This document shows, in pieces, positions 1 through 36,792 of a stretch of DNA of 36,792 nt. The stretch's first letter is position 1; each line of letters opens with the position of its first letter. The notes beneath the pieces are model-generated. The model was not told the origin of the DNA and ran no database searches. It saw nothing but the letters and a program-made list of their open reading frames with translations. This stretch comes from Dehalococcoidales bacterium (GTDB taxonomy: Bacteria > Chloroflexota > Dehalococcoidia > Dehalococcoidales > RBG-16-60-22), in NCBI GenBank assembly GCA_030606585.1, contig JAUWGD010000002.1, forward strand, positions 1-36,792. The letters are read 5' to 3'. Made by a program: the position numbers and the translations under genes.

Positions 1-125
1 TGCCCGGTGTCCGGCTGCGGCTTGGCGATAGGTGTCCAGTCGTTGCCGACATGCTCGTCCTTGCAGGCTATCTGACAGTTGTAACACCCGTTGCACCTGT
101 TGATGTCTATTACCATTGCCTTCAT
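1..125 (-). CDS. 4Fe-4S dicluster ferredoxin-type (BthL-like beta) subunit of a Mo/W oxidoreductase; N-terminal 41 codons only, gene runs off the left edge
   Basis: Not in the ORF track because it is truncated. The reverse complement of 1..125 reads ATG AAG GCA ATG GTA ATA GAC..., giving MKAMVIDINRCNGCYNCQIACKDEHVGNDWTPIAKPQPDTG. It carries a CxxCxxCxxxC cluster motif. A GGAGGTG RBS (rc of 133..139) lies 7 nt upstream of the ATG at 125..123. The N-terminus resembles my recollection of the P. acidigallici BthL start (MVIDVAKCQDCNNCFMGCMDEH). Confidence 0.6.
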   Translation of the reverse strand, partial: MKAMVIDINRCNGCYNCQIACKDEHVGNDWTPIAKPQPDTG

Positions 126-170
126 TATTCTTCACCTCCAAGCGGTTATATGTAAATCAAACCTTCAAAA

Positions 171-200
171 ATAATACACTCTGGCACTGGTTCCGGTCAA
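171..200 (-). promoter_or_regulatory. candidate sigma70 promoter for the ferredoxin-subunit gene
   Basis: On the minus strand: TTGACC (rc of 195..200), an 18 nt spacer, then TATTAT (rc of 171..176). GGTCAA (195..200) and TTGACC (215..220) also form a 6 bp inverted repeat around the -35. Confidence 0.3.
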
Positions 201-230
201 CTTTGCCGGTTTAATTGACCTATCCCCAGG

Positions 231-1919
231 TCACTCACCCGGAATTATAGGTAGAAGCAGGTATGACGCGAATTCCGGGTCATGGTGAATCTGGTGCATT
301 GTTGTCTTGCTGCTGCAGATGTGCAGGGAGCCGGGTCCGTTATCCATGCTGGCAATCTCTAACTCAAGGCGATGGCCGGCCCGGAACACGTTGGCGATAT
401 GGGAAAGGCTGATGGTATATTCATACACCTCACCCGGTTTTACCGGAATATTTTCGGTATGAATATGCCAGGGGTTCCACGGCTCGGACTTGCTCTCATC
501 GACGGCGCGGTGTGAGGCCTTGAGCCAGCCGGCTGTCAGCATCTTCTTCGTGCCGGACTGGTCGATATCCCGGAGCGTGACATTCCAGTTGGTGTCCTGC
601 TGGTCGATGGCGGCATAAAAACAGATGGCCATCGGCCCGATGACCTCCACGTCTCCGGTAAAAGGCGGCATTGAGTATTTAATCGAATTAACCTCGGAGG
701 TCTCGTCAAGCGGCTGCTGCACAAAGCAGTCGGGTCCCTCATTGGATATCGGCGCCTCGGTCATGAGGCGTCCCCGGCTGCGCAGGTAGTACTTCGTCCA
801 CTGTGTCCTGGCCAGGGGCCACTCGTTCTCATAGCGCCATTCGTTGATGCCGTTAACGTACAGCTTTATCGGCGCCTCGTCCATGATACCGTTGTCAATC
901 CCCTTCAGCCAGTAGTCGAACCACCGCAAGACCTCGTCATGCAGCTGGTACCAGGGGCGTTCGTCACTTAAAGCCAATGGCGCCATGATCATTTTCCTGG
1001 GCACGTCCACACCGTTGTAGAGCGCGAAAGCGCCATCGGGCCACATACCGACCCAGGGGCCGCCGGTATAGAGCGGCACCTTGATTTTATCGAATTTGGT
1101 ATAGGGTGACCGCTCCTGATAAAAAGGCCCGTCATTGGGATTAAAGAGAAAATCGGCGAAGAGCGGACTCTTCGTCGGGTAGCGGAGGCAGCTCCAGTAA
1201 ATACTGTAGACCATCAGGTCGGGGTCGCTGAGACGCTCCTTCCAGAGCTTCTCCAGCTCATCCGGGGGCGTGTTCCTAATCGTGGCGCAGACATGGTTCT
1301 TATGAGCGATGCCGCTGCCGTTGGTCTGCCCCGGGTCCATGCCCCGCCCGCTGTAAAGGCGATATATCATCGGATGGATAACGCCGCCGGAGGTGGCGAA
1401 CTGGGTATAGAGGTCGCTCCATACCTCCCAGGGGAAAATGGCCTTGAGGTGCGGCGGCTGCTCGGCGGCGGTATAGGTCTGGACGCCGGCCAGGTAGGAT
1501 ATGCCGACCATCCCAACATTGCCATCGCACCAGGGCTGGGCGGCAATCCACTCGATGATGTCATAGCCGTCTTCGCCTTCGGTATGACCGCACATCCCCA
1601 CGTACTCGCCCTCCGAGTCGCCGCAGCCCCGGACATCGGCGATAACATGGACATACCCGTTCCCCACGAACTGCCTGGTATTGCCGGACTCCATGGTGCC
1701 GTCCCAGACCAGAGAATTCTCACGTCCCTGGGGCTGCTTTACCGGCAGCACCTGTAAATCCTTGCCGTAAACGCACAGCGCCAGCAGCGCCGGGAATTTC
1801 CCTTCGGCATCAGGGCGGTATACATCAACCGCTAGTTGTACGCCGTCACGCATGGGGACAAGTACGGTTTCCTTCTCTCTGACCTGATACAACGGTTGTG
1901 AACCCTTCTCTTTTTTCAT
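231..1919 (-). CDS. CocE/NonD family (peptidase S15, X-Pro dipeptidyl-peptidase-like) serine hydrolase/esterase
   Basis: From ORF 231..1934. I prefer the ATG at 1919 (MKKEKGS...) because a GAGGAG RBS (rc of 1927..1932) precedes it. The 1934 codon is GTG and lies inside that RBS. Family motifs: VLVPMRDGVQLAVDVYRP, ADVRGCGDSEGEY and the nucleophile elbow GISYLAG. Confidence 0.8.
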   Translation of the reverse strand: MKKEKGSQPLYQVREKETVLVPMRDGVQLAVDVYRPDAEGKFPALLALCVYGKDLQVLPVKQPQGRENSLVWDGTMESGNTRQFVGNGYVHVIADVRGCGDSEGEYVGMCGHTEGEDGYDIIEWIAAQPWCDGNVGMVGISYLAGVQTYTAAEQPPHLKAIFPWEVWSDLYTQFATSGGVIHPMIYRLYSGRGMDPGQTNGSGIAHKNHVCATIRNTPPDELEKLWKERLSDPDLMVYSIYWSCLRYPTKSPLFADFLFNPNDGPFYQERSPYTKFDKIKVPLYTGGPWVGMWPDGAFALYNGVDVPRKMIMAPLALSDERPWYQLHDEVLRWFDYWLKGIDNGIMDEAPIKLYVNGINEWRYENEWPLARTQWTKYYLRSRGRLMTEAPISNEGPDCFVQQPLDETSEVNSIKYSMPPFTGDVEVIGPMAICFYAAIDQQDTNWNVTLRDIDQSGTKKMLTAGWLKASHRAVDESKSEPWNPWHIHTENIPVKPGEVYEYTISLSHIANVFRAGHRLELEIASMDNGPGSLHICSSKTTMHQIHHDPEFASYLLLPIIPGE

Positions 1920-1958
1920 ATTCGTGCTCCTCACCGAAAAAATAATATATTTTATAGT

Positions 1959-4085
1959 CTAGACTTTATAGACCTTACAGAGAAATGCCCTGAGAGATTC
2001 CGAACCGGTATGAGGGTCACAGGGCATATCCGCGGCTAAAACATTAACATTCGATTCCGTGAAGCCGTATTCCGGCGGCTCTTTTTCCGGGAACCACCAG
2101 CCGTGCTGGGCGTGAACGACGCCGGGGTGAATCCCCTCCGTAAGTTTCGCCCTCTGCTTAATCCTGCCCCTGGGGCTTTCAATCCAGACCCAGTCCCCGG
2201 ACTTGATTCCCAGGCCGCCCGCAGTATCGGGGTGGATTTCCATTATGGGGTCGGGCGTAATTATACGCAGCGATTTAATCTGCCTGCCCTCGGAACAAAA
2301 GTACCCCTGGATTCTACCGCCGGTGGTGATTATCAGGGGATATTCTTTAAATAAATCAGGCGTCGAATAAGGACTCTCCGGAGGTTCTACATAATAAGGC
2401 AGCGGGTCATAACCCATCGCTTCAAGAGTAGAACATCGCAGTTCAACCTTGCCGGAAGGCGTGTCGAACCCTTTTTCCTCGTATTTACGGTACCGCATCT
2501 TACCCGTCAGTATTCCCAGCTCCTTGAACTCCTCGAAGGTCAGGCCGGCATTTTCCAGCGTCCAGTCGCAATACTCCCTGACATCCTTCCAGGGGAAATC
2601 ATCGCCCATACCCAACCTGCGGGCAAGGTCGAACAGGATTTGCTTATCATCGCGGCACTCCCCTATCTCCGCTACTTTTTGCCTGATAAGAACGCACCAG
2701 CCCATGTGTACATCAGCCACCTCGTCATTTTCCAGCCAGCTCGATGCCGGAAGCAGTATATCCGCCATCTGGGCGGTGGGAGTCATGAACATATCGGTCA
2801 CCACCGTGAAATCGACCTTCCTGAATGCCTTTGCCGTCCTGACGGGGTCGGTCTGATTGAGCAGCGTGTTACTGCCCATGACGAACAGTGCTTTAACGGG
2901 GTACGGCTGCCCGGACATGATAGCGTCGAGTAAATGGCGCGGGTGAATGACGGAGTTGTCGAGGACTTTATACTTGCCGCGGCCAATCATCTTTGCCTTT
3001 ATTTCAGGCGTAATTCTTTCATGCAACGGGAGACTTTGCTCACCGTGGACGGTATGCGTTCTAACACCGGCCGGTGTTACCAGCGAAATATCGCCGCCGG
3101 GTACATCAAAATTTCCGGTGATGGCGGACAGGCAATGGACGGCGCGAACGGTTTGAAAGGTGTTTATATTCTGGTCAAGGGCATTGCCCCACTGTATACA
3201 GGCCGGTTTGGTCGTGGCGTACAGCCGTGCCGCCGCCCTGATATCTTCCGCGGGAATCCAGGTAATTTCCGCCACCTTTTCCGGTGGATACTCCTCGACC
3301 CTTTCCGCCAGCTCGTTGAAACCGGTAGTCCACCTGGCCACGAAATCTTTATCGTATAACTTCTCTTTAATTATCACATGGAGCATACCCAGTGCCAGGA
3401 CATCGTCAGTGCCGGGTCGAATCTGCAGCCAGTGGTCCGCCCGGGCGGCTAAATCGGTTTTCCGCGGGTCGATTACTATCAATTTGGCACCGTTCTTCAC
3501 CGCGAGGGTAACCTGATACCCGCACATGCCGTCGGCGGCGCCCGATTCCGCGATGTTACAGCCCCAGTTCAAGACGCACCTGGGTTTTACGCCACCGAAC
3601 CCGTAGTAATCGCAGACATGGAACTTGCCGCTGGTCATACGCGCCGCTACTATTCTGGGGAAATAACAGTTATTGATGATACTGAGGTGATTGGGAGTGC
3701 CCCAGCAATTGGAAAACCTCATATATAGAGGAAGGAGGGGCCGCCCCGTGCCGATAATAGTAGCTACCGACTCGGCGCCGAACTCCCGCTTGATATCAAG
3801 GAATTTCTCCGCGATAGCGTCCAGCGCCTCGTCCCAGCTGATTCTCTGCCATTTATTCTCCCCCCGCGCCCCGGCTCTCCTGAGAGGGTATTTCAGGCGG
3901 TCGGGATGATACAACAGTTCCACCGATGCTCTGCCCTTGGGGCAGATGTAACCGAGCGAAGTAGGACAGTCCGGGTCTCCGGTAATTTCAACCACTCTGC
4001 TATCCTGAATGTGCACGAGAACGCCGCAGACGCCGTGACACATTCGGCACGTGGATTTAACTACTTTTTCACGGTTATTTATCAT
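1959..4085 (-). CDS. cytoplasmic bis-MGD Mo/W oxidoreductase, acetylene-hydratase-like clade (709 aa)
   Basis: From ORF 1959..4163, start trimmed to the ATG at 4085 (MINNREKVVKSTC...). N-terminal [4Fe-4S] motif CRMCHGVC...CPKG. No twin-arginine signal. Blocks match my recollection of P. acetylenicus acetylene hydratase: YDKDFVARWTTGFNELAERVEEYPPEKVAEIT, FMTPTAQMADILLP, FPWKD, TPSGKVELRCSTLEAMGYDPLPYY, KEYPLII. The RBS is weak, so the start is uncertain by a few codons. Confidence 0.85.
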   Translation of the reverse strand: MINNREKVVKSTCRMCHGVCGVLVHIQDSRVVEITGDPDCPTSLGYICPKGRASVELLYHPDRLKYPLRRAGARGENKWQRISWDEALDAIAEKFLDIKREFGAESVATIIGTGRPLLPLYMRFSNCWGTPNHLSIINNCYFPRIVAARMTSGKFHVCDYYGFGGVKPRCVLNWGCNIAESGAADGMCGYQVTLAVKNGAKLIVIDPRKTDLAARADHWLQIRPGTDDVLALGMLHVIIKEKLYDKDFVARWTTGFNELAERVEEYPPEKVAEITWIPAEDIRAAARLYATTKPACIQWGNALDQNINTFQTVRAVHCLSAITGNFDVPGGDISLVTPAGVRTHTVHGEQSLPLHERITPEIKAKMIGRGKYKVLDNSVIHPRHLLDAIMSGQPYPVKALFVMGSNTLLNQTDPVRTAKAFRKVDFTVVTDMFMTPTAQMADILLPASSWLENDEVADVHMGWCVLIRQKVAEIGECRDDKQILFDLARRLGMGDDFPWKDVREYCDWTLENAGLTFEEFKELGILTGKMRYRKYEEKGFDTPSGKVELRCSTLEAMGYDPLPYYVEPPESPYSTPDLFKEYPLIITTGGRIQGYFCSEGRQIKSLRIITPDPIMEIHPDTAGGLGIKSGDWVWIESPRGRIKQRAKLTEGIHPGVVHAQHGWWFPEKEPPEYGFTESNVNVLAADMPCDPHTGSESLRAFLCKVYKV

Positions 4086-4311
4086 AGGTAAGATGGATGT
4101 GATAAAACATCTCTGGCGTAAACCAGTAATGACCATTTTAACCAGTTGAATTACCCTTGTCAAAGTCCGGGGATTTAAGCTAGCGTGATTTCAGCCTAAA
4201 AAACTACCCGTTTCCCCGTTAAAAAGCTGCATAGCTGACGGATTTTGCGAAATGTATTATAATACCGTAGTATATAATATAAATATTCAATATATTCTAA
4301 GGAGATGTTCG

Positions 4312-4851
4312 ATGAGCAAGGTCTCTAACCATGAGCTTCAATCGATGGCTGATGAGATAAGAGAACAGGCAGCTCAACTGAGAGTCTTAACTTTCCTGTC
4401 ATTCATTTACACCGCTGACGTCGTCAACAGGTATCTGGATATAGAAGTAGCCAGATATCCCGTCGGTCGAACCGGCTTTGGCGTCCTGCATAATCTGGTA
4501 CTGCACGGTGGTACAATGATGCCGACCAATTTAAGCGAGAGAATATTCCGCTCCAAACATGCCGTAACCAGAGTGGTTGATAACCTTGAGAAACTGGGCT
4601 TCGTGAAAAGAGACGCCATAGGCAGCGATCGCAGGGTCAGGAAAGTCAGCATAACAAAAGAGGGACTGGCATTCGTTAAAGAGTCGCAGGCCGCCGGTCA
4701 GCAACGCCTCGGTCATATGCTCCTGAAGCCCCTGAATCAAAAACAGATAGAGTCACTGGGCACGATGACGAAGCAAATAAGAGAGCACACCCTCAACCTT
4801 ATCGCCCATACACAGAACAAGGGTGAAATACCTCCATCGGAAGAAAGATAA
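4312..4851 (+). CDS. MarR-family transcriptional regulator
   Basis: From ORF 4252..4851, trimmed to the ATG at 4312, which is preceded by AAGGAG (4299..4304). Winged-HTH block: TNLSERIFRSKHAVTRVVDNLEKLGFVKRDAIGSDRRVRKVSITKEG. Confidence 0.85.
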   Translation: MSKVSNHELQSMADEIREQAAQLRVLTFLSFIYTADVVNRYLDIEVARYPVGRTGFGVLHNLVLHGGTMMPTNLSERIFRSKHAVTRVVDNLEKLGFVKRDAIGSDRRVRKVSITKEGLAFVKESQAAGQQRLGHMLLKPLNQKQIESLGTMTKQIREHTLNLIAHTQNKGEIPPSEER

Positions 4852-4910: not shown

Positions 4911-4939
4911 TTGACAGCATAATAAATTTTTGATAGAAT
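4911..4939 (+). promoter_or_regulatory. strong sigma70 promoter with extended -10, driving the DUF35/thiolase/ACAD array
   Basis: TTGACA (4911..4916), a 17 nt spacer, then TAGAAT (4934..4939), with TG at 4931..4932 (TGnTAGAAT). The palindrome AATTAA-attc-TTAATT (4937..4952) overlaps the -10 and predicted start site. Confidence 0.6.
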
Positions 4940-5021: not shown

Positions 5022-5459
5022 ATGAACGCTAAAAAGCAGATTCCCTGTCTTGAGGGGTGGTTGACCATGCCACCGCAGGAACCTCAGCTTATAGGTAACC
5101 GGTGCCAGTCCTGCGGGCATTACTTTTTCCCGAAAGCGAAAACCTGCCGTAATCCGCTTTGCGATAAAGCAAAACCCCTGAAAGATGTGCTGCTCAGCAG
5201 AAAGGGCAAGCTGTTTTCTTACACTATCAATCATTACCCGCCCCCACCCCCATACCATGCTCCGGACCCCTTTGTACCTTTCGGTGTTGTCAGTATAGCG
5301 TTGCCCGAGGGAATAAAAGTCGGGGGGCAGGTACCCAAAGATGTCGATCTTGATTCACTGAAGGTAGACACGGAGATGGAGACGGTGAGAGAGGTACTTT
5401 ATATAGATGACCAGGGGAACGAAGTTTTAAGCTGGATGTTCCGACCGGCTAAATCATAA
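5022..5459 (+). CDS. DUF35 family Zn-ribbon + OB-fold protein (thiolase/aldolase partner)
   Basis: Zn-ribbon cysteines CQSCGHYFFPKAKTCRNPLC followed by an OB-fold region (GKLFSYTI..., FGVVSIALPEGIKVGGQV). AAAGGAG RBS. Sits immediately upstream of a thiolase-like gene, which is the canonical pairing. Confidence 0.8.
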   Translation: MNAKKQIPCLEGWLTMPPQEPQLIGNRCQSCGHYFFPKAKTCRNPLCDKAKPLKDVLLSRKGKLFSYTINHYPPPPPYHAPDPFVPFGVVSIALPEGIKVGGQVPKDVDLDSLKVDTEMETVREVLYIDDQGNEVLSWMFRPAKS

Positions 5460-5528: not shown

Positions 5529-6716
5529 ATGAGAGAAGCCGCTATCATAGGCATAGGAATACACCCCTGGGGGAAATTCCCGGAAAAGAGCGTCCACGAA
5601 CTCAACCTGGAAGTAGCCCAGATGGCGCTCAAAGATGCCAATATGGAGTGGAAAGACATACAGGGATTATTCTGCGGGCAGGACCCCTGGGCCGGCATCC
5701 AGGGCATGCTGGCGGGTTCTGCCCTGGCGCAAAACCTCGGCCTCACCGGTATTCCGGTGACCAACAATTACAACGCCTGTGCCACCGGCGGCTACGCCAT
5801 GAGGACGGCCCACCTTTATATAACCTCCGGCCTTATCGATACCGCCCTCGTATGCGGGGGGAGTATTTCCCCGAAGGGAGCCTTCGGCACCACCAAGTAT
5901 GATGAATTTGACGAGACTGACCTCGATAGTCAGCGATTCAGGGTTCTCGGGTCGGCCAATTTCACCGGGTTCGCCATGGCGGCACAGAGGCGTATGCAGC
6001 AATACGGACTGACCGAGGAAGACCTGGCCCTGCAAAAAGTCAAGTCCAGCAAATACGGCTCGCTCAATCCCAACGCCCGGTATCACAAGGTATACACTGT
6101 GGAAGAAATATTAGCCTCACCTATGGTGGCTTATCCCCTGCACCTCTACCAGGTATGCGCTACCAGCGACGGCGCCACCGCCTGCGTGGTGTGCAGCATG
6201 GACGTGGCTAAAAAATACACCACCAAACCGATTATCATCGCCGGAATCGGGGCTTCCAATCCGCAGTACCCCGCCCCCGGCATGGGCGGGTTCGGCAGCG
6301 ACTTCAGTGAAGTCCCGCCTCCCAACGAGAATGATGCCGGTATAAAATCCACCTATAATGCTTACGAGGAGGCCGGCGTGGGCCCCGAGGACCTGGATGT
6401 AGCCAGTGTCTATGACCTGACCGGCGCCATGGAAATCCAGTGGTACGAAGATATCGGGCTATGCAAGGAAGGCGACGCGGAAAAACTGCTCAGGGAAGGC
6501 GCCACGTCTATGGGCGGCAGGATTCCGGTTTGCACGGACGGCGGCTGCACTTCTTCAGGAGAGTGCATTCCGGCTCAGGCCCTCGCGGAAACCTATGAGA
6601 TAGTAACGCAGTTGAGAGGCGATGCGGGACCGAGGCAGGTTGAGGGCGCCAAGTTAGGCTTCTCGGTAAATTCGGGCAAACTGGGTAATTCCTCCGCCAT
6701 TGTCTACAAGAGATAG
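5529..6716 (+). CDS. thiolase-like protein, SCP-x / nonspecific lipid-transfer type
   Basis: 395 aa. N-terminal AIIGIGIHPWGKF, nucleophile-region NNYNACATGGYAM, and C-terminal CTDGGCTSSGECIPAQALAETYEIVTQLRG. GGGGGA RBS. Confidence 0.8.
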   Translation: MREAAIIGIGIHPWGKFPEKSVHELNLEVAQMALKDANMEWKDIQGLFCGQDPWAGIQGMLAGSALAQNLGLTGIPVTNNYNACATGGYAMRTAHLYITSGLIDTALVCGGSISPKGAFGTTKYDEFDETDLDSQRFRVLGSANFTGFAMAAQRRMQQYGLTEEDLALQKVKSSKYGSLNPNARYHKVYTVEEILASPMVAYPLHLYQVCATSDGATACVVCSMDVAKKYTTKPIIIAGIGASNPQYPAPGMGGFGSDFSEVPPPNENDAGIKSTYNAYEEAGVGPEDLDVASVYDLTGAMEIQWYEDIGLCKEGDAEKLLREGATSMGGRIPVCTDGGCTSSGECIPAQALAETYEIVTQLRGDAGPRQVEGAKLGFSVNSGKLGNSSAIVYKR

Positions 6717-6825: not shown

Positions 6826-7989
6826 ATGGATTTTGAGCTTTCCCCCGAGGAAAAGGCATTCCAGAAGGAAATACGCGAGTTTCTGGACAAGGAATGTAAT
6901 GAGAATGTTGTTGCCGAGACGTTGTCTTTGCAGGGGGCAGGACCCTACTCCAAGGAGTTGCTCCGGAAAATGGGCGCGAACAGGTTACTGGCTCCCAGGT
7001 GGCCGGAGGAGTACGACGGTCGCGGCATGGGCGCTATGGCCGAGGCTATCAAGGTAGACGAGATAAATTCCCATCATGCCCCCTTTCCCCTGGACGGTGT
7101 TGAAATCGGCAATGCCCTCCTCATCAGCGGAAACGAGGAACAGAAAAAGAGGTTCCTGCCGGGTATTGCCAGCGGGGAGATCGACATTGCCCTCGGTTAT
7201 ACCGAGCCGAATGCCGGCTCCGACATCGCCTCGATACAGCTCCGCGCTGTAGAAGACGGGGACCACTTTGTCCTGAACGGGCAAAAGATATACAACAGCG
7301 AAGCACACGTCTGCGAATATCACTGGCTGCTGACCAGGACAGACCCTACCGCCGAAAAAAAGCACCGGGGGCTTAGCATGTTCATAGTTGATTTAAAGAG
7401 CCCCGGAATTACGATACGTCCATTGATAACCTCGGGAGGATTGCGGACAAACGAGGTCTTTTACGAAGACGTGCACGTCCCCAGAGAGAACCTGGTCGGC
7501 GAGAAGAACGGCGGCTGGGCGGTCATCATGAGCGCCCTTTACGGCGGCGGCGGGGGAGGAGGACTGGCCACCGGAACCAAGAATGTTATTAATACGCTGG
7601 TGAAGTACGTCCTTGAAGAAAAACAAGATGCCGATGAAAACAAGTGGATTCCGGAGGCAATGGCGGACCTGTATGTTAAGACCCACGTTGGGGAATTAAT
7701 GGGTGTTCAAGCAACTGCCTTTGCTGACCTCAAGGTTACCCCTCCCTATGGAGGCGGCGGCGCTGTATCACGTTTACTCAGCGGCGATACAAGGCGGCTT
7801 CTATACAACACAGCCATGCAAATATTAGGGCCTTATGGTCAACTTGCCAAGGATTCCAAATGGGCACCCCTGAAGGGAGAGATATTACGCGAGTTCATGG
7901 ATGCCCCACGCTGGACGATTGTCCACGGCAGCCAGGAGATTCAAAAACTGCTCATTGCTACCAGGGGCCTGGGACTACCCAGAAAGTAA
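6826..7989 (+). CDS. acyl-CoA dehydrogenase family protein, divergent C-terminal domain (candidate non-catalytic subunit)
   Basis: ACAD N-terminal and middle-domain motifs: MDFELSPEEKAFQKEIREFL, GYTEPNAGSDIASIQLRA, GQKIYNS. AGGAGG RBS at 6813..6818. The C-terminal domain has Gly runs (YGGGGGGGL, PPYGGGGA) and reads IVHGS where MCAD-type enzymes have YEGT. Confidence 0.8.
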   Translation: MDFELSPEEKAFQKEIREFLDKECNENVVAETLSLQGAGPYSKELLRKMGANRLLAPRWPEEYDGRGMGAMAEAIKVDEINSHHAPFPLDGVEIGNALLISGNEEQKKRFLPGIASGEIDIALGYTEPNAGSDIASIQLRAVEDGDHFVLNGQKIYNSEAHVCEYHWLLTRTDPTAEKKHRGLSMFIVDLKSPGITIRPLITSGGLRTNEVFYEDVHVPRENLVGEKNGGWAVIMSALYGGGGGGGLATGTKNVINTLVKYVLEEKQDADENKWIPEAMADLYVKTHVGELMGVQATAFADLKVTPPYGGGGAVSRLLSGDTRRLLYNTAMQILGPYGQLAKDSKWAPLKGEILREFMDAPRWTIVHGSQEIQKLLIATRGLGLPRK

Positions 7990-8010: not shown

Positions 8011-9153
8011 GTGGATCCTAGACTCTCTGAAGAACAGGAAATACTAAGAAAATCAGCCCGTGACTTCTTAACCGATAAATGCCCTAAAACGCTGGTCAGG
8101 GAAATGGAAAAGGATGAGAAAGGCTACTCGCCGGAGCTCTGGAAGGAAATAGCCGACCTGGGCTGGATGGGGCTGGCATTTCCGGAGGAGTACGGCGGCG
8201 GCGGCATGAGCTCCCTCGACCTGGCGATACTTCTCGAGGAAATGGGGCGGGTCTGCTTCCCCGGGCCATTTTTCTCCACCGTGATTTGTGGGGGCTTGCC
8301 CATCCTGGATGCCGGAAGCGACGCACAAAAACGGAAGTACCTGCCCGATATTATCAGCGGTAAAACTATCTTTACCCTGGCACTGACCGAGGCCAGCGGT
8401 AAATACGATGCCGCCTCCGTTAAAGTTAAGGCTACTGCGGAGAATGGAAATTATATCATCAACGGCACCAAGCTTTTCATCCCCGACGCTAATGTCGCCG
8501 ACTATATTCTCTGCGTGGCCAGGACCGATGATAAGGCAAAAAAGCCCGAAGACGGCATAACCGTTTTTATAGTTGATGCAAAGAGCCAGGGTATCAGCAC
8601 CACCGTGCTGAAGACAATCGCCCGGGACAAACAATGCGAGGTGGTTTTCAACGGGGTAAAAGTGCCCAAAGAAAATATCCTCGGTGAATTAAACCAGGGT
8701 TGGGGCGATGTGCAGAAGATAATTGAACGCGCCGCCATCGCCAAGAGCTGTGAGATGCTGGGGGGCATGGAGATGGTACTGGATATGACGGTGGCCTATG
8801 TCAAAGAAAGAGTACAGTTTGATGTCCCTGTCGGTGTTTTCCAGGCAGTACAGCACCATTGTGTCTATATGCTGGTAGAGGTTGAAGGCTCCAGGGCAAC
8901 TGCTTATGAGGCAGCCTGGAGGTTAAGTACCGGGCGCCCCTACTCCAGTGAAGCCGCTATAACCAAGGCCTGGGTAAGCGATGCCTACCAGCGTGTCGTC
9001 GCTCTGGGTACGCAATCGCACGGGGGTGTGTCTATCATGGAGGACCATGACCTGCCATTATATTTCCGGCGGGCCAAGGCCGCCGAACTTGCCTTTGGTG
9101 ATGCTCGTTTTCATAGAAAAACGGTAGCCCGGAATCTCGGGTTCAAGGTATAG
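8011..9153 (+). CDS. acyl-CoA dehydrogenase
   Basis: GTG start with GGAAAGGAG upstream, 21 nt after the preceding ACAD. Motifs: LSEEQEILRKSARDFL, LTEASGKYDAASVKVKA, NGTKLFI, ERVQFDVPVGVFQAVQHH. Confidence 0.85.
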   Translation: MDPRLSEEQEILRKSARDFLTDKCPKTLVREMEKDEKGYSPELWKEIADLGWMGLAFPEEYGGGGMSSLDLAILLEEMGRVCFPGPFFSTVICGGLPILDAGSDAQKRKYLPDIISGKTIFTLALTEASGKYDAASVKVKATAENGNYIINGTKLFIPDANVADYILCVARTDDKAKKPEDGITVFIVDAKSQGISTTVLKTIARDKQCEVVFNGVKVPKENILGELNQGWGDVQKIIERAAIAKSCEMLGGMEMVLDMTVAYVKERVQFDVPVGVFQAVQHHCVYMLVEVEGSRATAYEAAWRLSTGRPYSSEAAITKAWVSDAYQRVVALGTQSHGGVSIMEDHDLPLYFRRAKAAELAFGDARFHRKTVARNLGFKV

Positions 9154-14919: not shown

Positions 14920-14950
14920 TTCAAATTAGATAATGTAAGTAGGTGAAAAA

Positions 14951-16210: not shown

Positions 16211-16232
16211 AATAAGATTAAAGGAGATAACG

Positions 16233-24920: not shown

Positions 24921-25358
24921 TTAGCGCTTAAGCAGCGAGTCCAGTTTTTCCAGTCGGCTTGCCCTTTTCCTGACTACCAATGTAAACACCCTGGGAACAT
25001 CCGCCATCAGAGACCTTGATTGTTCGGCTGCGTCCGTATAGAACTGGATAATCGTCTTTTCTATCTCAACAGCCTGTTTCAAGAAATCGGCGTAGCCTGT
25101 TCCTTCTTTTATCGCCGTTTTCAGGGAATATTCATCCGGATCTATATTGAAAGCGAAACAACCCTCGATGGCATCGGTGATAACTCCGTAGTATGCCCTC
25201 TCCACCTGTACGATATTTTTCTTGTTTTCCCTGGCAAAAGAGAGCCAAATCTCGGCATCTTCGGCACTCTGCTGAGCCAGATTCTCGTAGAATTCCGCCG
25301 AGTCATTTTCAAGTTTCCTGGAGAAGGTGATGCCCTCAGAAGCCGTATGTAATATCAT
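24921..25358 (-). CDS. hypothetical protein, possible ferritin/rubrerythrin-like four-helix bundle without obvious di-iron ligands
   Basis: 145 aa. Starts 19 nt after the mmsA-like stop, with a GGGGG RBS. The repeated helical pattern (SAEFYENLAQQ..., IEKTIIQFYTDAAEQ) resembles ferritin-like domains. I cannot find the ExxH pairs. Confidence 0.4.
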   Translation of the reverse strand: MILHTASEGITFSRKLENDSAEFYENLAQQSAEDAEIWLSFARENKKNIVQVERAYYGVITDAIEGCFAFNIDPDEYSLKTAIKEGTGYADFLKQAVEIEKTIIQFYTDAAEQSRSLMADVPRVFTLVVRKRASRLEKLDSLLKR

Positions 25359-28689: not shown

Positions 28690-28707
28690 GTCTCAATCCT
28701 TCCCTTG

Positions 28708-29979
28708 TTAGATTGCCTGTTTTACGAGGTTGGTAACATCAAAGACCTTCATCTTGTCGCCCGATGTATTGATGGCATCCTTAAAATTCATCTCACACCA
28801 CGGGCAGGCGCTTACTATCGCCTCAGCGCCGGTGGCCTTCGCCTCCTCAATCCTTTCAGTAGCCGTCCAGTTGGAGAAGTCGGGATAGGTTTCTCTTGTT
28901 CCGCCGCCGGCGCCGCAGCACCAGGCATACTCCCTGATTCTTTCCATTTCCACCAGCTCTATGCCGGGGATACTCTTAAGCACATCTCGCGGCGGGTCAT
29001 AGACACCCCAGGCCCCGTTATACCTGGGTTTTTTAGGCTCATAAATTACTATCTGGTTTTTGATTTTCTTCTCTTTGCCTTCCCAGGGTACGTACGGCTC
29101 TCCACGCCTGCCCAGGTGGCAGGGGTCGTGGTAGGTAACGCGCATTGGTACGGTCTTGCTGAATTTAAGCTTGCCTTCCTTAATCAGGCGGTCGTAATAC
29201 TGCACGGTATGGAGAATCTCGAACTTCGCCCCCAGGGGGGGATAAAGGCGGTTAAAGGCATGATAGCAATCGGCGCAGGGGGTTACCACCGTCTTAACAC
29301 CGGCGGCAGTCCAGGCCTTGATGGTATTTTCCGCCAGCCTGGTGAACTCTTCTTTATAGCCCATGTCATAGGCTCTACCGCCGCAACAGGGCTCGTTTTC
29401 TCCCATGATTCCGATATCAACACCGGCATTCTTTAGAATGGTTACGGCCGTCCGGGCCGTTTCCTGAAGTTCTTCATCGTAGCTGAACCGGCAGCCGGCG
29501 TGGAAGAGAACTTCCGCCGACTCTCCGGGAACGCGCTTGATGTCCAAGCCTTCAGCCCAGTCGCCGCGTCCGGCCGCGGGTTTCTCCATCATGTTGTTTT
29601 CTTTGCGGAGATGTTCGATAAGGGCCGTATGCTGCGGCAGTACCTGGCCATCCTCAACCAGCCTGAATTTTAACTCATGTATCATTTCCAGCGGTTCCAG
29701 GTTGTAGCGGCAAATTTTATCGGAAACGTCACAGGACCCGCAGGTCGTGCATTTATAAACTATATCTACTACCCTATCGGAATAAGTGCTCTGGCCGTTC
29801 AGGAGTGACAGGGCGACGGCATACCTGCCGCGCGCGGAGTAACTCAGGAAATTATTATAGGCTATACTGGGACAGCCTTTGGCAAACCTCCAACTCTTTA
29901 CCTGGTCAAATGGAATCCATTTACAATACGAGCACTGGCTGCACCTTTCCATATCAGCTTTATAGTCTTCTAGCGCCAC
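28708..29979 (-). CDS. (Fe-S)-binding protein with two intact CCG domains (HdrD/GlcF-like), trio copy 2
   Basis: GTG start at 29979, consistent with the N-terminal length of the paralogue. CSQCSYCK and CTTCGSCD motifs. CCG domain 1: AGCRFS, EPCCGG, TPCADC. CCG domain 2: YHDPCHLGR, AWCCGAGGG, SACPWC. Confidence 0.8.
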   Translation of the reverse strand: MALEDYKADMERCSQCSYCKWIPFDQVKSWRFAKGCPSIAYNNFLSYSARGRYAVALSLLNGQSTYSDRVVDIVYKCTTCGSCDVSDKICRYNLEPLEMIHELKFRLVEDGQVLPQHTALIEHLRKENNMMEKPAAGRGDWAEGLDIKRVPGESAEVLFHAGCRFSYDEELQETARTAVTILKNAGVDIGIMGENEPCCGGRAYDMGYKEEFTRLAENTIKAWTAAGVKTVVTPCADCYHAFNRLYPPLGAKFEILHTVQYYDRLIKEGKLKFSKTVPMRVTYHDPCHLGRRGEPYVPWEGKEKKIKNQIVIYEPKKPRYNGAWGVYDPPRDVLKSIPGIELVEMERIREYAWCCGAGGGTRETYPDFSNWTATERIEEAKATGAEAIVSACPWCEMNFKDAINTSGDKMKVFDVTNLVKQAI

Positions 29980-30013
29980 TTTCTAATGCCTTCTTTCTTT
30001 GTTTCTCTTGCGC

Positions 30014-31477
30014 TTAAAAGCACAGCTTGCCCGGGTTCATTACGTTGTTGGGGTCGAATATTCCCTTAAGCTTCTTCAGCACGGTCGTAGTCTGCGCATC
30101 CCGCTTGTAGGCCATATCCGCCCAGATGCCGTAGGGTCGAGAGAAGAAAGCCCCCTGCTCAATCAGCTTTTCACTGGCTTTGGTCAGGAGCTGTTGCATC
30201 CCGGTTGCTTCTTTCGAATCATCCCTATCGAAGGGGAGGATAAACTCGCAATGTACATTGGCTCCCTGATGCAGGGGCTGGACGTACACACCGATATCCG
30301 AGGTCGGGTATCCACTTGCTTCGGCCACCGATTTCACCGTCTTGATATATTCCGGCGTCCTGTTGAGGGTGGTTATGAAGAGGATATCCTGATATCCCGC
30401 CTTATAGCCGAGTTTCCAGTAGGGCTCACGGGAGGTGCTGAGCAACGCTTTCAGCACATCATCACCCCTGGCTCCCGGAACCGCCGATTCGAGTTTAAGG
30501 CCGGATTTCCCGGCAATATCCGCGATGTCCTTCTCCTGGTACGCAACCCTTTCCTCGGGGAGTATGCTGCGTCCGGCTATGCCCACCAGAACCACCCAGG
30601 GCGGCAGCTCCTTCATTAACGCTTTAATCCCACCGGGGCCGTCTCCAAGGATATATGCCAAGCTTGAATTATTTATTAATAAAAGCTCGTCGGCAAACCT
30701 GAATTTCAGCAGCCGGTAAGTAAAATCAAACAGGTCATCAGGTTTCCGGGCCGGTACAATGAAGAGCTTGTGGGGGGCGGGTAATATCTCGCATTTTACC
30801 GATGCCCAGGTCACGATACCCATGCTACCCTGGGCGGCGGAGACGAATCTGTAGAAATCCGCCTGCCCGGGACCTGTAGCACCTGCCGGTGCCTGTTTCC
30901 TCTCCCAGGCATCTTCCATCGAAGTCCAGTTGCCGGCGTCGCCGGTTACCAGTTTATTGCCGTCTCCCCAGATAATTTCATTGCATCGTAACGGGTCGAG
31001 CGACGCCCACAGCTGCCGGGGAATGAGGGTGGGCTCCCTTTCCAGGAGGCTGGCTACTACCGACTTGCCGGCCCGTGGGAGCAAAGGTGTGGTAAGCCTC
31101 AGGCCTTCTTTAGCCAGTTCGGGCTGGAGTTCGGTGTAGGTTACTCCCGGCTCAATCATCGCCACCCTGTTTCGACGGTCGATTCTCATAATCTTCTTCA
31201 TTCCGCTCATGTCCACAATGACCGCTCCCGGTACGCTGGGAACAGTATCACCGCGGAAGCGTGGCGGTCCCGAACTCACCGGAACTAGCGGTGTGGCCGT
31301 CTGATTGGCCCATCTGACAATCGCCTGAACCTCATCGGCGCTCCCGGGCTTGATTATTAACCGGGGCTTTACAGGTTTGACGAAGCTTAAATCCTTGGAA
31401 TAGGCATCCAACGCTTCAGGGTCATCGCTAACACATTCCGAACCTACGATACCGGCCAACTCATCTTTTAAAGCCAT
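30014..31477 (-). CDS. FAD-binding PCMH-type oxidase/dehydrogenase (GlcD-like), trio copy 2 subunit A'
   Basis: Paralogue of 13459..14919. Shared motifs: IVGSECVSDDP, DEVQAIVRWANQTATPLVP, LEREPTLIP, QGSMGIVTWA, DIGVYVQP, FSRPYGI, IFDPNNVMNPGKLCF. Confidence 0.8.
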   Translation of the reverse strand: MALKDELAGIVGSECVSDDPEALDAYSKDLSFVKPVKPRLIIKPGSADEVQAIVRWANQTATPLVPVSSGPPRFRGDTVPSVPGAVIVDMSGMKKIMRIDRRNRVAMIEPGVTYTELQPELAKEGLRLTTPLLPRAGKSVVASLLEREPTLIPRQLWASLDPLRCNEIIWGDGNKLVTGDAGNWTSMEDAWERKQAPAGATGPGQADFYRFVSAAQGSMGIVTWASVKCEILPAPHKLFIVPARKPDDLFDFTYRLLKFRFADELLLINNSSLAYILGDGPGGIKALMKELPPWVVLVGIAGRSILPEERVAYQEKDIADIAGKSGLKLESAVPGARGDDVLKALLSTSREPYWKLGYKAGYQDILFITTLNRTPEYIKTVKSVAEASGYPTSDIGVYVQPLHQGANVHCEFILPFDRDDSKEATGMQQLLTKASEKLIEQGAFFSRPYGIWADMAYKRDAQTTTVLKKLKGIFDPNNVMNPGKLCF

Positions 31478-31758: not shown

Positions 31759-31792
31759 GATTTGACCGAGAGGTATATAGGGGGTAACGGCT

Positions 31793-32275
31793 ATGAAATA
31801 TAAGTTAATCATGGTAGGCCTGATGGTTATTCTGTCATTGTCTCTGCTTGCCTGTCAATCGGGGTCAACGGGAGACGCAACCGAGCCTGATCAACCCGCT
31901 AAAAGCTCGGATAGTTACGCAGCTGCGACCTCTGTTAAGTATTATACCTGCACCGTTTTTGAGAATACCCCGGATGTTACGGATGAAATTTCATTTCCGG
32001 CCAATAAGGGAGTTACCGTAATCCTGTGCTCCAACCAGACAACCGGATTCCAGTGGAATGAAGAAGCCGAGATAAGTGACACGTCAATTGTAAAGCAGAC
32101 CAGCCATAGTTATACCGCGCCCTCCGGCACTAAAGTCGGGGCTTCGGGAACGGAAAAATATGTCTTTACGGGAGTCAGCCCGGGCACGGCTACGGTAAAG
32201 CTGGAATACAGCCGGCCCTGGGAAGGCGGCGAGAAGGCCGAATGGACGTGCACCCTGACCATCATTGTGAAATAA
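31793..32275 (+). CDS. lipoprotein with chagasin-family (MEROPS I42) cysteine-peptidase-inhibitor domain
   Basis: Signal peptide plus lipobox: MKYKLIMVGLMVILSLSLLAC. I42 signature loops: NQTTGFQW (consensus NPTTGY.W), GASGTEKYVF, and RPWEGG. AGGGGG RBS. Confidence 0.65.
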   Translation: MKYKLIMVGLMVILSLSLLACQSGSTGDATEPDQPAKSSDSYAAATSVKYYTCTVFENTPDVTDEISFPANKGVTVILCSNQTTGFQWNEEAEISDTSIVKQTSHSYTAPSGTKVGASGTEKYVFTGVSPGTATVKLEYSRPWEGGEKAEWTCTLTIIVK

Positions 32276-32305
32276 CAGGCTCTCAGGGAAGGAAATAACA
32301 ACAAT

Positions 32306-32348
32306 GCCGGGGAATCCCGCTAAAAAAGAGGTTCCCCGGCATCTTTTT
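32306..32348. terminator. bidirectional intrinsic terminator between convergent genes
   Basis: A 9 bp GC-rich stem, GCCGGGGAA (32306..32314) with TTCCCCGGC (32332..32340), followed by ATCTTTTT on the plus strand. An A-run in the loop gives a U-tract option for the minus strand. Confidence 0.7.
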
Positions 32349-32369
32349 CACTTGCCTGTATCTAACTCT

Positions 32370-33824
32370 CTAAAGACCGTATTCTTTCCACCTCTTTTCC
32401 ACCAGTTCCTCGGTCTCCGGCAGGGAATAGTGGCAATCCGGTGGAAATCTCTGACCACCCCACTCCTCCCGCGGCGGGTGCAGTTGCCAGTCCGTAGTGG
32501 CGTCGATAAGCAGCTTGTCGGCCACGGCAGCCCCGTATTCCAGTTCGGCCCTCAGGTCGTAGGCCAGGCTCACGTCGATGGGCGACCCCATATACAGGGG
32601 GTAGACGACCAGGTCTCTGTTGAAATTAACCCTGCTGTGCATGGTGCTCATCAGCGCCGCCGGGTTGCGAATATCCACACCCTCTTCGACCACCATGATA
32701 ATATTAAAGGGATGCCCGGCGAACTTGGAGCCCCACATGGCGGCGGCTATCTGCCTTGCCTGTCCCTGATATGTTTTATGAATCTTCACCGCGGTTATCG
32801 GCCCTGACGCAACATCAATCACTCCGGGGATTTCGGCGGCTTCCAGGATATTCCACAGTACCACCGACATCATGTTGCTGACCGACGCCCTGATTTCGGT
32901 AATGCCTTCTTTGGTGCCCACCAGAGAGCCGCGGAAAATGGGGTCGTTTCTATAGGTGATGCAGCTCACTTCCACCACCGGTCTCTTCCTCGCTTCCCCG
33001 TAAAACCCGGAGCCCTCCCCGAAAGGCCCTTCAACTTCGTAAGTGCTCGGGTCGGGGGACATAAAGCCCTCGACCACTATTTCCGCGGCAGCGGGGACTT
33101 CAATATCGGAGGTCTCACACTTCACCAGTCGGATGGGTTCTTGCCGCAGCGCCCCGGCCAGGTTATACTCAGGTCCGATAACCGGACTGCCGGCGACCAC
33201 GATTAAAGTCGGGTCGTAACCGTAGACGAAAGCCACGGGCATGGGTTTCCCCATCTCCTGGTACTTCGAGTAAGTAATCCCCCAGTCCTTCATCGGCATC
33301 AAAAGCACGCCTATCTTGTTCTTGCTCAATATCGTGCCCCGGTAAACGCCGGCGTTGTTCAGCCCGGTATCGGGGTCCCTGGTGACGGTAGCGTTAAACG
33401 TGTTGATATAACGTCCGTTATCCAGCGGGTGCCACTTGGGGACCGGCAACTGGAAAAGGTCCACGTCTTTACCCTTAACGATGTTTTCTTTGACCGGCCC
33501 GGTCTTGACCCTCACCGGTTCCAGCGGTTTCTTCATCCTCTGCCTGATTATCTTAATAGTATCCGCAGGGGATGTATCCTTGGGCAGGCCGAGCATAAGG
33601 TTGACACGTGAGTGCTTCCCCAGGCCATTGGTAAACAGTTTTGTGGAAAAAGTCTTCTCGTGACCCTTGATATTCTCAAAGAGAAGCGCCGGGCCTCCCT
33701 GCACGTATACCTTTCTGATAATCTGGGATATCTCGTCATCCCAGTCCACCTTCGCGGTTACCCTCTTAAAATCACCCTCGGCATCCAGCTGGGCCATCCA
33801 TGCGCGCAAATCTCTATCTGACAT
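32370..33824 (-). CDS. UbiD-family prFMN-dependent (de)carboxylase
   Basis: 484 aa. Motifs: DLRAWMAQLDAEGDFKRVTAKVDWDDEISQI, GGPALLFENIKGH, EVEGPFGEGSGFYGE, ITYRNDPIF. GGGGGGA RBS. Confidence 0.9.
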   Translation of the reverse strand: MSDRDLRAWMAQLDAEGDFKRVTAKVDWDDEISQIIRKVYVQGGPALLFENIKGHEKTFSTKLFTNGLGKHSRVNLMLGLPKDTSPADTIKIIRQRMKKPLEPVRVKTGPVKENIVKGKDVDLFQLPVPKWHPLDNGRYINTFNATVTRDPDTGLNNAGVYRGTILSKNKIGVLLMPMKDWGITYSKYQEMGKPMPVAFVYGYDPTLIVVAGSPVIGPEYNLAGALRQEPIRLVKCETSDIEVPAAAEIVVEGFMSPDPSTYEVEGPFGEGSGFYGEARKRPVVEVSCITYRNDPIFRGSLVGTKEGITEIRASVSNMMSVVLWNILEAAEIPGVIDVASGPITAVKIHKTYQGQARQIAAAMWGSKFAGHPFNIIMVVEEGVDIRNPAALMSTMHSRVNFNRDLVVYPLYMGSPIDVSLAYDLRAELEYGAAVADKLLIDATTDWQLHPPREEWGGQRFPPDCHYSLPETEELVEKRWKEYGL

Positions 33825-33866
33825 TATTATCCCCCCTGAAATATTAAATCTTTATTCTGTCAGTAT

Positions 33867-35201
33867 CTATTTATATACGCCGTATTCCCTGGTAAAATCA
33901 ATCATTGCCTTGAGGTTTTCTGGTTTGACCCAGTCAATGGCAGCCCCATTGGCCATAATATAACCGCCGCCGGGGGCGCAGGTATCGATGAGCTGGCGGC
34001 ATCTTTCCTTCACCTGCTCAGTCGTGCCGGTAATCAGCAGCGAGGAAGACACGTTGCCACTTATGCAGGCAACATCACCCAGTATTTTCTTAGCCCTGGC
34101 CATGTCTGTCACGTCGAACGTCCATGCCATCTTAGCTTTAGGCACGTCCCTGATAACTTCCAGACGCGAGTTATAGCTGCCCTCAACAAAAGGAAACGGT
34201 ACGCAGCCCTCTTCAATCAAGCCCATGAAAACCTTTCTCAGGGTGGGCCAGTAGAAGGTTTTGAACTGTTCATCGGAGAGGAAACCGTCGGCCCCTTTAT
34301 GCAGCGGCATAAACACCAGGGGATTTCCGTTCATCCTTGCCATGGACACCCCCATCTTGATCATGAACGGTGTTACTACCTCCAGAGCCCGGAGGAGTTT
34401 GGCGGGCTGCCGATACATATCCACCATTACCCCTTTGGTGCCTCTAAGAGTATCACCGATTACGTCAAAAGGTGCCTTGGCAAGGCCCCCAAGGAAGCCG
34501 GGAAATCCGGCGGCGGCCATCTCATGACTGAAACCACTGACAACCCCCATCCACTTCATGGTTTCAGCCCCTGCTTCAAAAAGAGTTTTATAGGCAGCCT
34601 GAACGTCGGGCATAGCGAACGGCATGACAAAAGAACCGAACGAACCCTCCTGGACGTTGGTGGGACTTTGTAGCATCTTCAAGGGCTCCAGGGCTCCGCA
34701 TATGCGAGGTAAGTAAGTGCTGTTCCAGAAATGTGACGGGTCCTGAATCAAGGCGTCATATTCATCTGCCATCATGTATTCGCCTTCAATGCACTGGTAG
34801 GTATTTTCGAGCGCGACTCCATGCCCGGGCCAGGCATATAACTTGACGTCAAGAATTTCAAAGAGCCTCCCCGAACCAGCGAAAAACGCGCCTGGGTTCA
34901 CATCCGGCTCGAAGTCCAGGACGTATTTCCTGATGGTGGTGGTGAGCTTTTCGTAGTCATACATCATATCATGAGGGGTCAGGCCTACATAATAAGCGGG
35001 GAAAAAATTAACAATGGAAAAGATGGGCACCCTGTCCGGCGTTTTCTTCAATTGAACCGCATCTTTTACCCGTGTCACTCTCTCCTTGTATAACTTCTCG
35101 GCTTCGGGGCTGGTAAACTCTACGCCCTGTGGCGAAAGCCACGAATTAAACATCGCCTCCTGCTTTTCATCCGATGATAACTCTGCCCATTGCTTTTCCA
35201 T
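33867..35201 (-). CDS. uroporphyrinogen-decarboxylase (URO-D) fold family protein, function unknown (444 aa)
   Basis: GGAGG RBS. URO-D/MtaA-type TIM-barrel C-terminal pattern: PFDVIGDTLRG, VFMPLHKGADGF, ISGNVSSSLLITGTTEQVKERCRQLID, PGGGYIMANGAAID, PENLKAMIDFTREYG. Longer than HemE/MtaA-type proteins. Confidence 0.6.
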   Translation of the reverse strand: MEKQWAELSSDEKQEAMFNSWLSPQGVEFTSPEAEKLYKERVTRVKDAVQLKKTPDRVPIFSIVNFFPAYYVGLTPHDMMYDYEKLTTTIRKYVLDFEPDVNPGAFFAGSGRLFEILDVKLYAWPGHGVALENTYQCIEGEYMMADEYDALIQDPSHFWNSTYLPRICGALEPLKMLQSPTNVQEGSFGSFVMPFAMPDVQAAYKTLFEAGAETMKWMGVVSGFSHEMAAAGFPGFLGGLAKAPFDVIGDTLRGTKGVMVDMYRQPAKLLRALEVVTPFMIKMGVSMARMNGNPLVFMPLHKGADGFLSDEQFKTFYWPTLRKVFMGLIEEGCVPFPFVEGSYNSRLEVIRDVPKAKMAWTFDVTDMARAKKILGDVACISGNVSSSLLITGTTEQVKERCRQLIDTCAPGGGYIMANGAAIDWVKPENLKAMIDFTREYGVYK

Positions 35202-35346
35202 TTTTATTTACCTCCTGTACGCTCTCTGCAGGTTATCCAGACTCAGCGCCTGCCCATTTTCTGGCAGGCAATACCGCTAATGCTCCGAGGTCCGGGATAA
35301 AACGCTCTCCATGGGTAAAACAACTTGTTACATCGCCCTTGTCAGA

Positions 35347-35375
35347 ATATTACATACGTGACACCTGGCTGTCAA
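35347..35375 (-). promoter_or_regulatory. candidate sigma70 promoter for the URO-D-like/UbiD operon
   Basis: On the minus strand: TTGACA (rc of 35370..35375), a 17 nt spacer, then TAATAT (rc of 35347..35352). The inverted repeat CCTGGCT (35364..35370) with AGCCAGG (35389..35395) brackets the -35. Confidence 0.5.
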
Positions 35376-35435
35376 TTCTCCATCTCAGAGCCAGGCATTA
35401 GCTACCCGAGAGGCGATTTTGCTCCTTAAAGGAAA

Positions 35436-35465
35436 GGCTCCGGAGGAATAATATCCTTCGGAGCC
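35436..35465 (-). terminator. intrinsic terminator after the solute-binding-protein gene
   Basis: On the minus strand: GGCTCCGAAGG-atattatt-CCTCCGGAGCC (10 of 11 positions pair) followed by TTTCCTTT. A smaller palindrome, AAAGGCTTAAGCCTTT (35481..35496), abuts the stop codon. Confidence 0.6.
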
Positions 35466-35496
35466 CTGTCCATTTCCAATAAAGGCTTAAGCCTTT

Positions 35497-36690
35497 TTAC
35501 TGTGTCGTGTATTTTTCTACCAAGGCCTGCCAGGTCGAGAGGACCCTGTCGGTGACCTCTTCGCTGTAACCCAGGTCATGACACATATCCGCCCAGGTGG
35601 GGAATGCGTACTCTAAAGCTGCTGCATCCCACAGGGCCGACTGCTCCGGGGTGGGAGTGTTGATAGTAATGCCCGATTCCTCAATAGTGGGCGTGCTATG
35701 TACGGTTTCGTCATACATACCCTGGGCGCATACTATCAAGGCATCTTCCCACGTAGCATCGAATATCGCCTGGTCTTCCGGTGGCAGGGAAGCATAGAAT
35801 TCGTGACTCGTCAGGATGAGCAGGGTCCCTGCGGAGAAGGTCTGTTTCAGGATGTAGTCACAAAGTTCGAACATGTTGTAAGGGCCTATCATGGCATAGG
35901 TCATGATAGCGGCATCGGTTACCCCTTTTTGCATGTTATCGTATGCTTGGGGAGGTATCTGGAAAACGCCGGCAGCGCCGAAAGCAGCCATCATATCCGC
36001 CAGGGCTCCCAGCGCCCCGCCGACCTTGAGGCCTTCAAGGTCTTCAGGCACAAATACCTCTTTATCCGCAGTAATGAGATAACCCGGGTCTATTTCAAGG
36101 GCTTTAATCAAATGATAGGGTTCGAACTCGGCTGCAATTTCCGGTATCTCATAGAATTCTATCAGGGCATCGAATGATGCGAGGAAGTCCTCTATGCTAA
36201 CACCTTGCTTGTGGAACGACAGCGTGGGGAGACCGGTAACCGCGGCTAACGGGAAATCGGACATTTTGCTGCCGGTAGAGGTCATGACGATTTCACAGAC
36301 ACCCTGTTTTACTGCATCCAGAGAGCCCGCATCGTCTAGTAAGGCCGAAAATCCATAAGTCTCTACAATGTAGCGACCGTCCGTCCGAGCCTCGAACTCA
36401 TCCGCCCACCACTCGTAGCCCACGCCTACAGCTGAGAACGGGGGCATCGTGTAATTAAACTTAATTGTCCTGACCTCCGGCGCAGGAGCCGGCTCAGGTT
36501 CAGGTTCCGGTGCTGGGGCTGGTTCTGGTGCCGGCGCAGGTTCTGGTTCTGGCTCCGGTGCGGGTGCGGGTGCCGGTGCTGGTGCAGGTGCTGGAGCCGG
36601 GGCCGGCTCCGGTTCAGCACAAGCAGCGAGCAGGAGAGACGCCAGCAGAATTACAGAGAGTACTGCGGCCATCAAGGTTCGTTTCTTCAT
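35497..36690 (-). CDS. TRAP-type (DctP-family-like) periplasmic/extracytoplasmic solute-binding lipoprotein
   Basis: Signal peptide plus lipobox: MKKRTLMAAVLSVILLASLLLAAC. DctP-like pattern: IKFNYTMPP, LDAVKQGVCEIVMTS, PEDLEGLKV, AFGAAGVFQIPPQAYDNMQKGVTDAA. AAAGGAGG RBS. No DctQ/DctM permease gene in the window. Confidence 0.65.
   Translation of the reverse strand: MKKRTLMAAVLSVILLASLLLAACAEPEPAPAPAPAPAPAPAPAPEPEPEPAPAPEPAPAPEPEPEPAPAPEVRTIKFNYTMPPFSAVGVGYEWWADEFEARTDGRYIVETYGFSALLDDAGSLDAVKQGVCEIVMTSTGSKMSDFPLAAVTGLPTLSFHKQGVSIEDFLASFDALIEFYEIPEIAAEFEPYHLIKALEIDPGYLITADKEVFVPEDLEGLKVGGALGALADMMAAFGAAGVFQIPPQAYDNMQKGVTDAAIMTYAMIGPYNMFELCDYILKQTFSAGTLLILTSHEFYASLPPEDQAIFDATWEDALIVCAQGMYDETVHSTPTIEESGITINTPTPEQSALWDAAALEYAFPTWADMCHDLGYSEEVTDRVLSTWQALVEKYTTQ
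36475..36618 (-). repeat. in-frame low-complexity coding repeat: 48-residue (Pro-Ala)n/(Pro-Glu)n tether
   Basis: Residues 25-72 of the SBP read AEPEPAPAPAPAPAPAPAPAPEPEPEPAPAPEPAPAPEPEPEPAPAPE. On the plus strand this appears as GGN-GCN/GGN-TCN hexamer-like repeats. Confidence 0.85.
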
Positions 36691-36792
36691 TTTTCCTCCT
36701 TTTCAATTAAGTAAAAATTAATATAGCTGCTTACCCGGCTATATTTTTTACACTACAACACCTCCTTTTTGTTAGATTTTCAGAAAGAATAT

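Follow-up and report, generated by a model that had tools for sequence, protein, structure and literature searches.

The locus examined here raises the question of whether the catabolic genes gathered on one stretch of DNA serve a common pathway and, if they do, on which substrate that pathway would act. The stretch, referred to as the window, comprises 36,792 nucleotides of an uncultured sediment Dehalococcoidales (Chloroflexota) genome.

Gene content of the window

Gene families were assigned by scanning every long ORF of the window against Pfam and NCBIfam, and the list obtained was the same as that of an earlier, sequence-only reading. Its count of 28 CDS also held, as 27 complete CDS and one truncated 4Fe-4S ferredoxin-domain gene that it had not mentioned. 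As had been claimed, a signal peptide with a lipobox was observed only in the I42 and DctP proteins. No hydrophobic stretch resembling a transmembrane helix was found in the remaining window proteins, except at the N-terminus of UbiX, where it corresponds to a beta-strand of the Rossmann fold, and a twin-arginine (Tat) motif was absent from both Mo enzymes. The window enzymes form a soluble, mostly oxygen-sensitive set.

Domain scans of the window revealed no ETF, hydrogenase, formate dehydrogenase module or benzoyl-CoA reductase, in agreement with the earlier account. PGR (SDR), DPGC (cyclase family), TAL (BKACE) and 3HCDH domains were not found by these scans either, the phloroglucinol-pathway enzymes being those listed in PMC10470551. 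The gene set as a whole remains, as first proposed, a combination that matches no described pathway; of its blocks, the CoA-transferase, AbfD and the iron-containing alcohol dehydrogenase (Fe-ADH) fit the 4-hydroxybutyrate route. No equivalog-level match implying a substrate was obtained among the window proteins.

The core operon

The core operon is preceded by a MarR-family regulator gene (4252–4851, plus strand; MarR and MarR_2 domains), divergent from the gene of an acetylene-hydratase-like (AH-like) enzyme. Its position upstream of DUF35 was kept in the related loci L006, L012, L014, L015, L018 and L152; regulators of this type are typical of operons for aromatic acids. Between MarR and DUF35, a promoter-like site (4911–4939, plus strand) consisting of TTGACA, a 17-nt spacer and TAGAAT with an extended TG gave 11 of 12 consensus matches, as a pattern match only.

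DUF35 (5022–5459, plus strand; zf-ChsH2 zinc ribbon and OB_ChsH2_C OB fold, with BbsA as sole NCBIfam match) is the partner of an atypical SCP-x/BbsB-type thiolase-like protein (5529–6716, plus strand). The best PDB match of the latter was BbsB 7pxp (E 1.8e-44), followed by PhlC (E 4e-29), which both makes and breaks C-C bonds on phloroglucinols, and Ltp2 (E 1e-24). Motif comparison across orthologues showed that Cys84 is kept and both catalytic His residues are replaced, by Tyr295 (YDLT) and Glu345, an arrangement reminiscent of Ltp2 and Sal, whose active sites are repurposed (aldolase motifs from PMC12329534).

Two acyl-CoA dehydrogenases follow on the plus strand: the PimC-like ACAD1 (6826–7989), with all three ACAD domains, and the PimD/AcrC-like ACAD2 (8011–9153), also with ACAD domains. 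The tandem was found in all orthologous loci, including those of other phyla (ACAD1 45–46% identical; ACAD2 56–59% in Aromatoleum, Syntrophorhabdus and Desulfosporosinus), and ACAD1 is a probable heteromer partner. The next gene encodes an M24 pita-bread-fold enzyme (9237–10457, plus strand; Peptidase_M24 and Creatinase_N domains), creatinase/DddP-like, with DddP as best NCBIfam match (83 bits against a cut-off of 600) and prolidases and DddP among its PDB matches. It ranks among the best-conserved proteins of the cluster, with identities of 80–96% among close relatives within Dehalococcoidales, 68% for the divergent L017 and 59–61% across phyla, and carries the conserved motifs VDF..GYNTCYYRN, HGLGLxLYEYP, MAVEA and LEEM.

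A soluble FAD_binding_2 flavoprotein (10508–11905, plus strand) had been called KstD-like. Its flavoprotein nature was confirmed, but it lies nearer to the soluble fumarate reductase Fcc3 (1qo8, E 1.5e-46) and urocanate reductase (E 3.7e-38) than to KstD (E 1e-29 to 5e-34), making it a candidate ene- or enone-reductase. The operon continues with a CoA-transferase (11968–13329, plus strand) of the 4-hydroxybutyrate CoA-transferase (AbfT/Cat2) subfamily, AcetylCoA_hyd_C type (3eh7, E 1.1e-64; 3gk7, E 5.5e-56).

Conservation of gene order

The co-directional block recurred in about 20 related contigs, in the order MarR, DUF35, thiolase-like protein, ACAD, ACAD, M24, fumarate-reductase-like flavoprotein and CoA-transferase, then an optional GlcDEF-like trio, AbfD, Fe-ADH, an optional alpha/beta hydrolase and the AthL-like enzyme. 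This central block of 15 genes recurs across species-level Dehalococcoidales MAGs, and the core with accessory genes was present in 17 genome-derived Dehalococcoidales loci (CoA-transferase 70–94% identical). Because the arrangement recurs in many independent contigs, the juxtaposition is more than chance; the sequence-only reading had allowed that it might be incidental.

That reading had also considered the island as a whole. Co-conserved blocks were indeed found, but the island is modular and not of fixed composition: there are relatives without CocE, without the AH-like enzyme, without one or other trio, without AbfD/Fe-ADH, without the alpha/beta hydrolase and without AthL. A minimal DUF35-thiolase/AthL/FAD_binding_2 cluster occurs in L002–L004. 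The stretch between UbiX and UbiD, the right arm, was found again in four metagenome contigs, complete in L065 and L066 and for the most part in L063 and L064; in two of the four the match to the window runs through DctP.

The sub-module DUF35, thiolase-like protein, ACAD, ACAD, M24 and CoA-transferase was also found in Syntrophorhabdus, Desulfosporosinus and Aromatoleum, with M24, CoA-transferase and ACAD2 56–61% identical between the window and other-phylum loci (CoA-transferase 59–60% in L145, L147 and L148). There it is accompanied by an ene-reductase, frequently also by UbiD or ETF. The core, with CoA-transferase or a ligase, with OYE and with UbiD, ETF or beta-oxidation genes, also occurs in one 5.5-Mb genome. 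The OYE flavoprotein of the other phyla stands where the window has the FAD_binding_2 flavoprotein, and these two ene- or enone-reductase families replace one another. The core adjoins UbiD in three other phyla; UbiD homologues 40–41% identical to that of the window border the orthologous modules of L145 and L148, the two loci covered by this comparison, and L147 has a truncated UbiD gene at the module. Since the cross-phylum core lacks any Mo enzyme, the Mo steps are accessory, which weighs against the mechanism proposed below.

Molybdenum and tungsten enzymes

The AH-like enzyme (1959–4163, minus strand; likely start 4085), cytoplasmic and of the Mo/W bis-PGD type, falls in the acetylene-hydratase/catechol-dehydroxylase clade and shares 37% identity with acetylene hydratase 2e7z (E 1.8e-126). 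It retains the Cys that ligates the metal and the [4Fe-4S] Cys motif, but has His in place of Asp13 of acetylene hydratase, as do the orthologues of L012 (87%) and L152 (65%), where the gene also stands beside the core. Downstream lie a CocE/NonD-family serine hydrolase (231–1934, minus strand; S15 fold, Peptidase_S15 and PepX_C domains, GxSYxG motif; TIGR00976, 321 bits against a cut-off of 66) and the truncated 4Fe-4S gene (1–125, minus strand). Six-frame reading of the left edge gave the first 41 codons of the latter (MKAMVIDINRCNGCYNCQIACKDEH...), and these 41 residues matched Fer4_2, Fer4_6 and Fer4_10 (E 4e-5 to 7e-4); its product is a possible electron-transfer partner. CocE is a variable flank gene; apart from the window, it adjoins the core in L006 and L018 only.

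The stand-alone AthL-like Mo bis-PGD enzyme (21519–24158, plus strand; AhtL-like_1st, Molybdopterin and Molydop_binding domains) is Ser-ligated, has no Fe-S domain and is 35% identical to 4v4c_A (E 9e-146). No beta-subunit (BthL) gene is adjacent to it. AthL stands beside the core in most loci, and a paralogue adjoins the (methyl)malonate-semialdehyde dehydrogenase (MMSDH) in L151. All paralogues keep H157, D188 and S189, the counterparts of H144, D174 and S175 in transhydroxylase. In contrast, transhydroxylase R153 is changed to Ala and Y404 to Pro, and W354 and Y560 are deleted; these four residues reportedly bind pyrogallol or the cosubstrate. Both Mo enzymes have intact Mo, W and Fe-S ligands. 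The lost transhydroxylase residues, the absent BthL and the lost Asp13 weigh against the roles proposed for these enzymes below.

Trios and the C4 branch

Trio 1 (13459–17711, plus strand; Pfam and NCBIfam) consists of a GlcD-like flavoprotein, an HdrD/GlcF-like CCG iron-sulfur protein and a second FAD_binding_4 protein, the architecture of GlcDEF. As an insert it is optional: L001, L013, L014, L015 and L019 lack it. The paralogous GlcDEF-like trio 2 (27016–31477, minus strand) is 38–41% identical to it; its FAD_binding_4 subunit (FADb2 cluster) adjoins MMSDH and a 145-aa gene in 14 MMSDH loci, its CCG and GlcD-like subunits in 9–11.

AbfD (17739–19205, plus strand), a 4-hydroxybutyryl-CoA dehydratase/vinylacetyl-CoA isomerase, shares 59% identity with C. 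aminobutyricum AbfD 1u8v along its entire length (E 2e-197) and keeps the cluster ligands C99, C103, H292 and C299; by its sequence it is a bona fide 4-hydroxybutyryl-CoA dehydratase. The adjacent Fe-ADH (19228–20421, plus strand; Fe-ADH and ADH_Fe_C domains; 19228 is the likely true start, the listed ORF starting at 19120) reached 160 bits with the 4-hydroxybutyrate dehydrogenase model against a cut-off of 500, and is a candidate 4-hydroxybutyrate/succinate-semialdehyde reductase. It was always beside AbfD in loci extending far enough, except L063 and L064. The alpha/beta-fold hydrolase (20547–21407, plus strand; Abhydrolase_1 domain, GLSLGG nucleophile elbow) is weakly PcaD-like (112 bits against a cut-off of 256) and is absent in L001 and L019.

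The right arm

UbiX flavin prenyltransferase (24334–24906, plus strand; NF004685, 278 bits against a cut-off of 188), a prFMN synthase, is followed by a 145-aa all-helical protein (24921–25358, minus strand) with a weak Ferritin_2 match (E 0.0026) and a low-confidence helical model (pLDDT 57). In 58 of 71 loci its gene adjoins that of the CoA-acylating MMSDH (25378–26871, minus strand; TIGR01722, 521 bits against a cut-off of 448.5). This pairing is generic, recurring in many unrelated gene neighborhoods, which counts against the mechanism proposed below.

Beyond trio 2 lies a chagasin-family (I42) peptidase-inhibitor lipoprotein (31793–32275, plus strand; Inhibitor_I42 domain, lipobox), which the window shares with none but its closest relatives, L065 and L066, and which is probably outside the pathway. 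The UbiD-family prFMN-dependent (de)carboxylase (32370–33824, minus strand; UbiD_N, UbiD and UbiD_C domains) scored 280 bits with TIGR00148 against a cut-off of 245, with 7pda and HmfF as best PDB matches. The 444-aa URO-D/MtaA-fold protein (33867–35201, minus strand) matched URO-D on residues 237–440; its N-terminal 235 residues gave no Pfam match, and MtaA/CmuA models scored under their cut-offs. No corrinoid partner was found inside the window. Paralogues 46–49% identical occur in L103 and L139, each beside a gene, recognized by eye, which we take to encode a pterin-binding methyltransferase. The TRAP-type (DctP) solute-binding lipoprotein (35497–36690, minus strand; DctP domain, lipobox, Pro/Ala/Glu-rich tether) reached 57 bits with NF037995 against a cut-off of 50; no genes for the membrane subunits DctQ and DctM lie inside the window.

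Substrate and proposed mechanism

Among bis-MGD enzymes, remodeling of ring hydroxyls is known from two clades only, AthL/RhL and AH/catechol-dehydroxylase (PMC7028382; see also PMC10100899), and since both Mo enzymes belong to them, a hydroxy-aromatic substrate is modestly supported and appears plausible. The Syntrophorhabdus locus came from a terephthalate reactor. Both Syntrophorhabdus and Aromatoleum are known to degrade aromatic or alicyclic compounds anaerobically. The cluster could instead act on nitrogen-containing substrates, given the M24 fold in the core, a RidA gene neighboring the locus in L152 and hydantoinase A/B genes in L143, L145 and L147. Two points count against the aromatic scheme itself: domain scans of the window gave none of the known enzymes that reduce or cleave the ring in phenol pathways, and, to our knowledge, no known phenol ring-cleavage chemistry predicts the C4 (4-hydroxybutyrate) branch. 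The absence from the window of ETF, of the TRAP membrane subunits and of a corrinoid partner for the URO-D-like protein also speaks against the scheme.

If the substrate is a cyclic compound with a carboxyl group, of which a (poly)hydroxy-aromatic acid is the most likely, degradation would proceed in several steps. The compound would be bound by the TRAP binding protein for uptake, and its carboxyl group removed by UbiD with prFMN from UbiX. Both Mo/W enzymes would then re-pattern the ring hydroxyls toward a meta (1,3-dioxo-tautomerizing) arrangement, the AH/catechol-dehydroxylase-like enzyme acting reductively with the 4Fe-4S protein as partner and the beta-less AthL-like enzyme catalyzing a redox-neutral hydroxyl shift or hydration. 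The enone tautomer may be converted to a cyclic 1,3-dione by the fumarate-reductase-like flavoprotein. Ring C-C cleavage would fall to the M24 enzyme and/or the atypical Cys/Glu thiolase-like protein with DUF35; ring opening by one of the hydrolases, as proposed earlier, is one option only, the thiolase-like protein with DUF35 being an equally good candidate by its BbsB, PhlC and Ltp2 matches and altered active site.

The oxo- or hydroxy-acid product would be activated by the AbfT-type CoA-transferase, dehydrogenated by the heteromeric ACAD, probably with an ETF encoded elsewhere, and shortened to acetyl-CoA units. Among side products, 2-hydroxy acids may be oxidized by the GlcDEF-like trios, C3 semialdehydes converted to acetyl- or propionyl-CoA by MMSDH, and C4 semialdehyde or 4-hydroxybutyrate to crotonyl-CoA by Fe-ADH, CoA-transferase and AbfD.

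This mechanism is put forward tentatively, jointly with the view of the window as a MarR-controlled, entirely cytoplasmic catabolic supra-operon with exchangeable modules around one ancient core; together they make a possible account that falls short of a probable one. In general terms, a cyclic acid, likely a hydroxy-aromatic one, is probably the compound that this cluster degrades to short acyl-CoAs.

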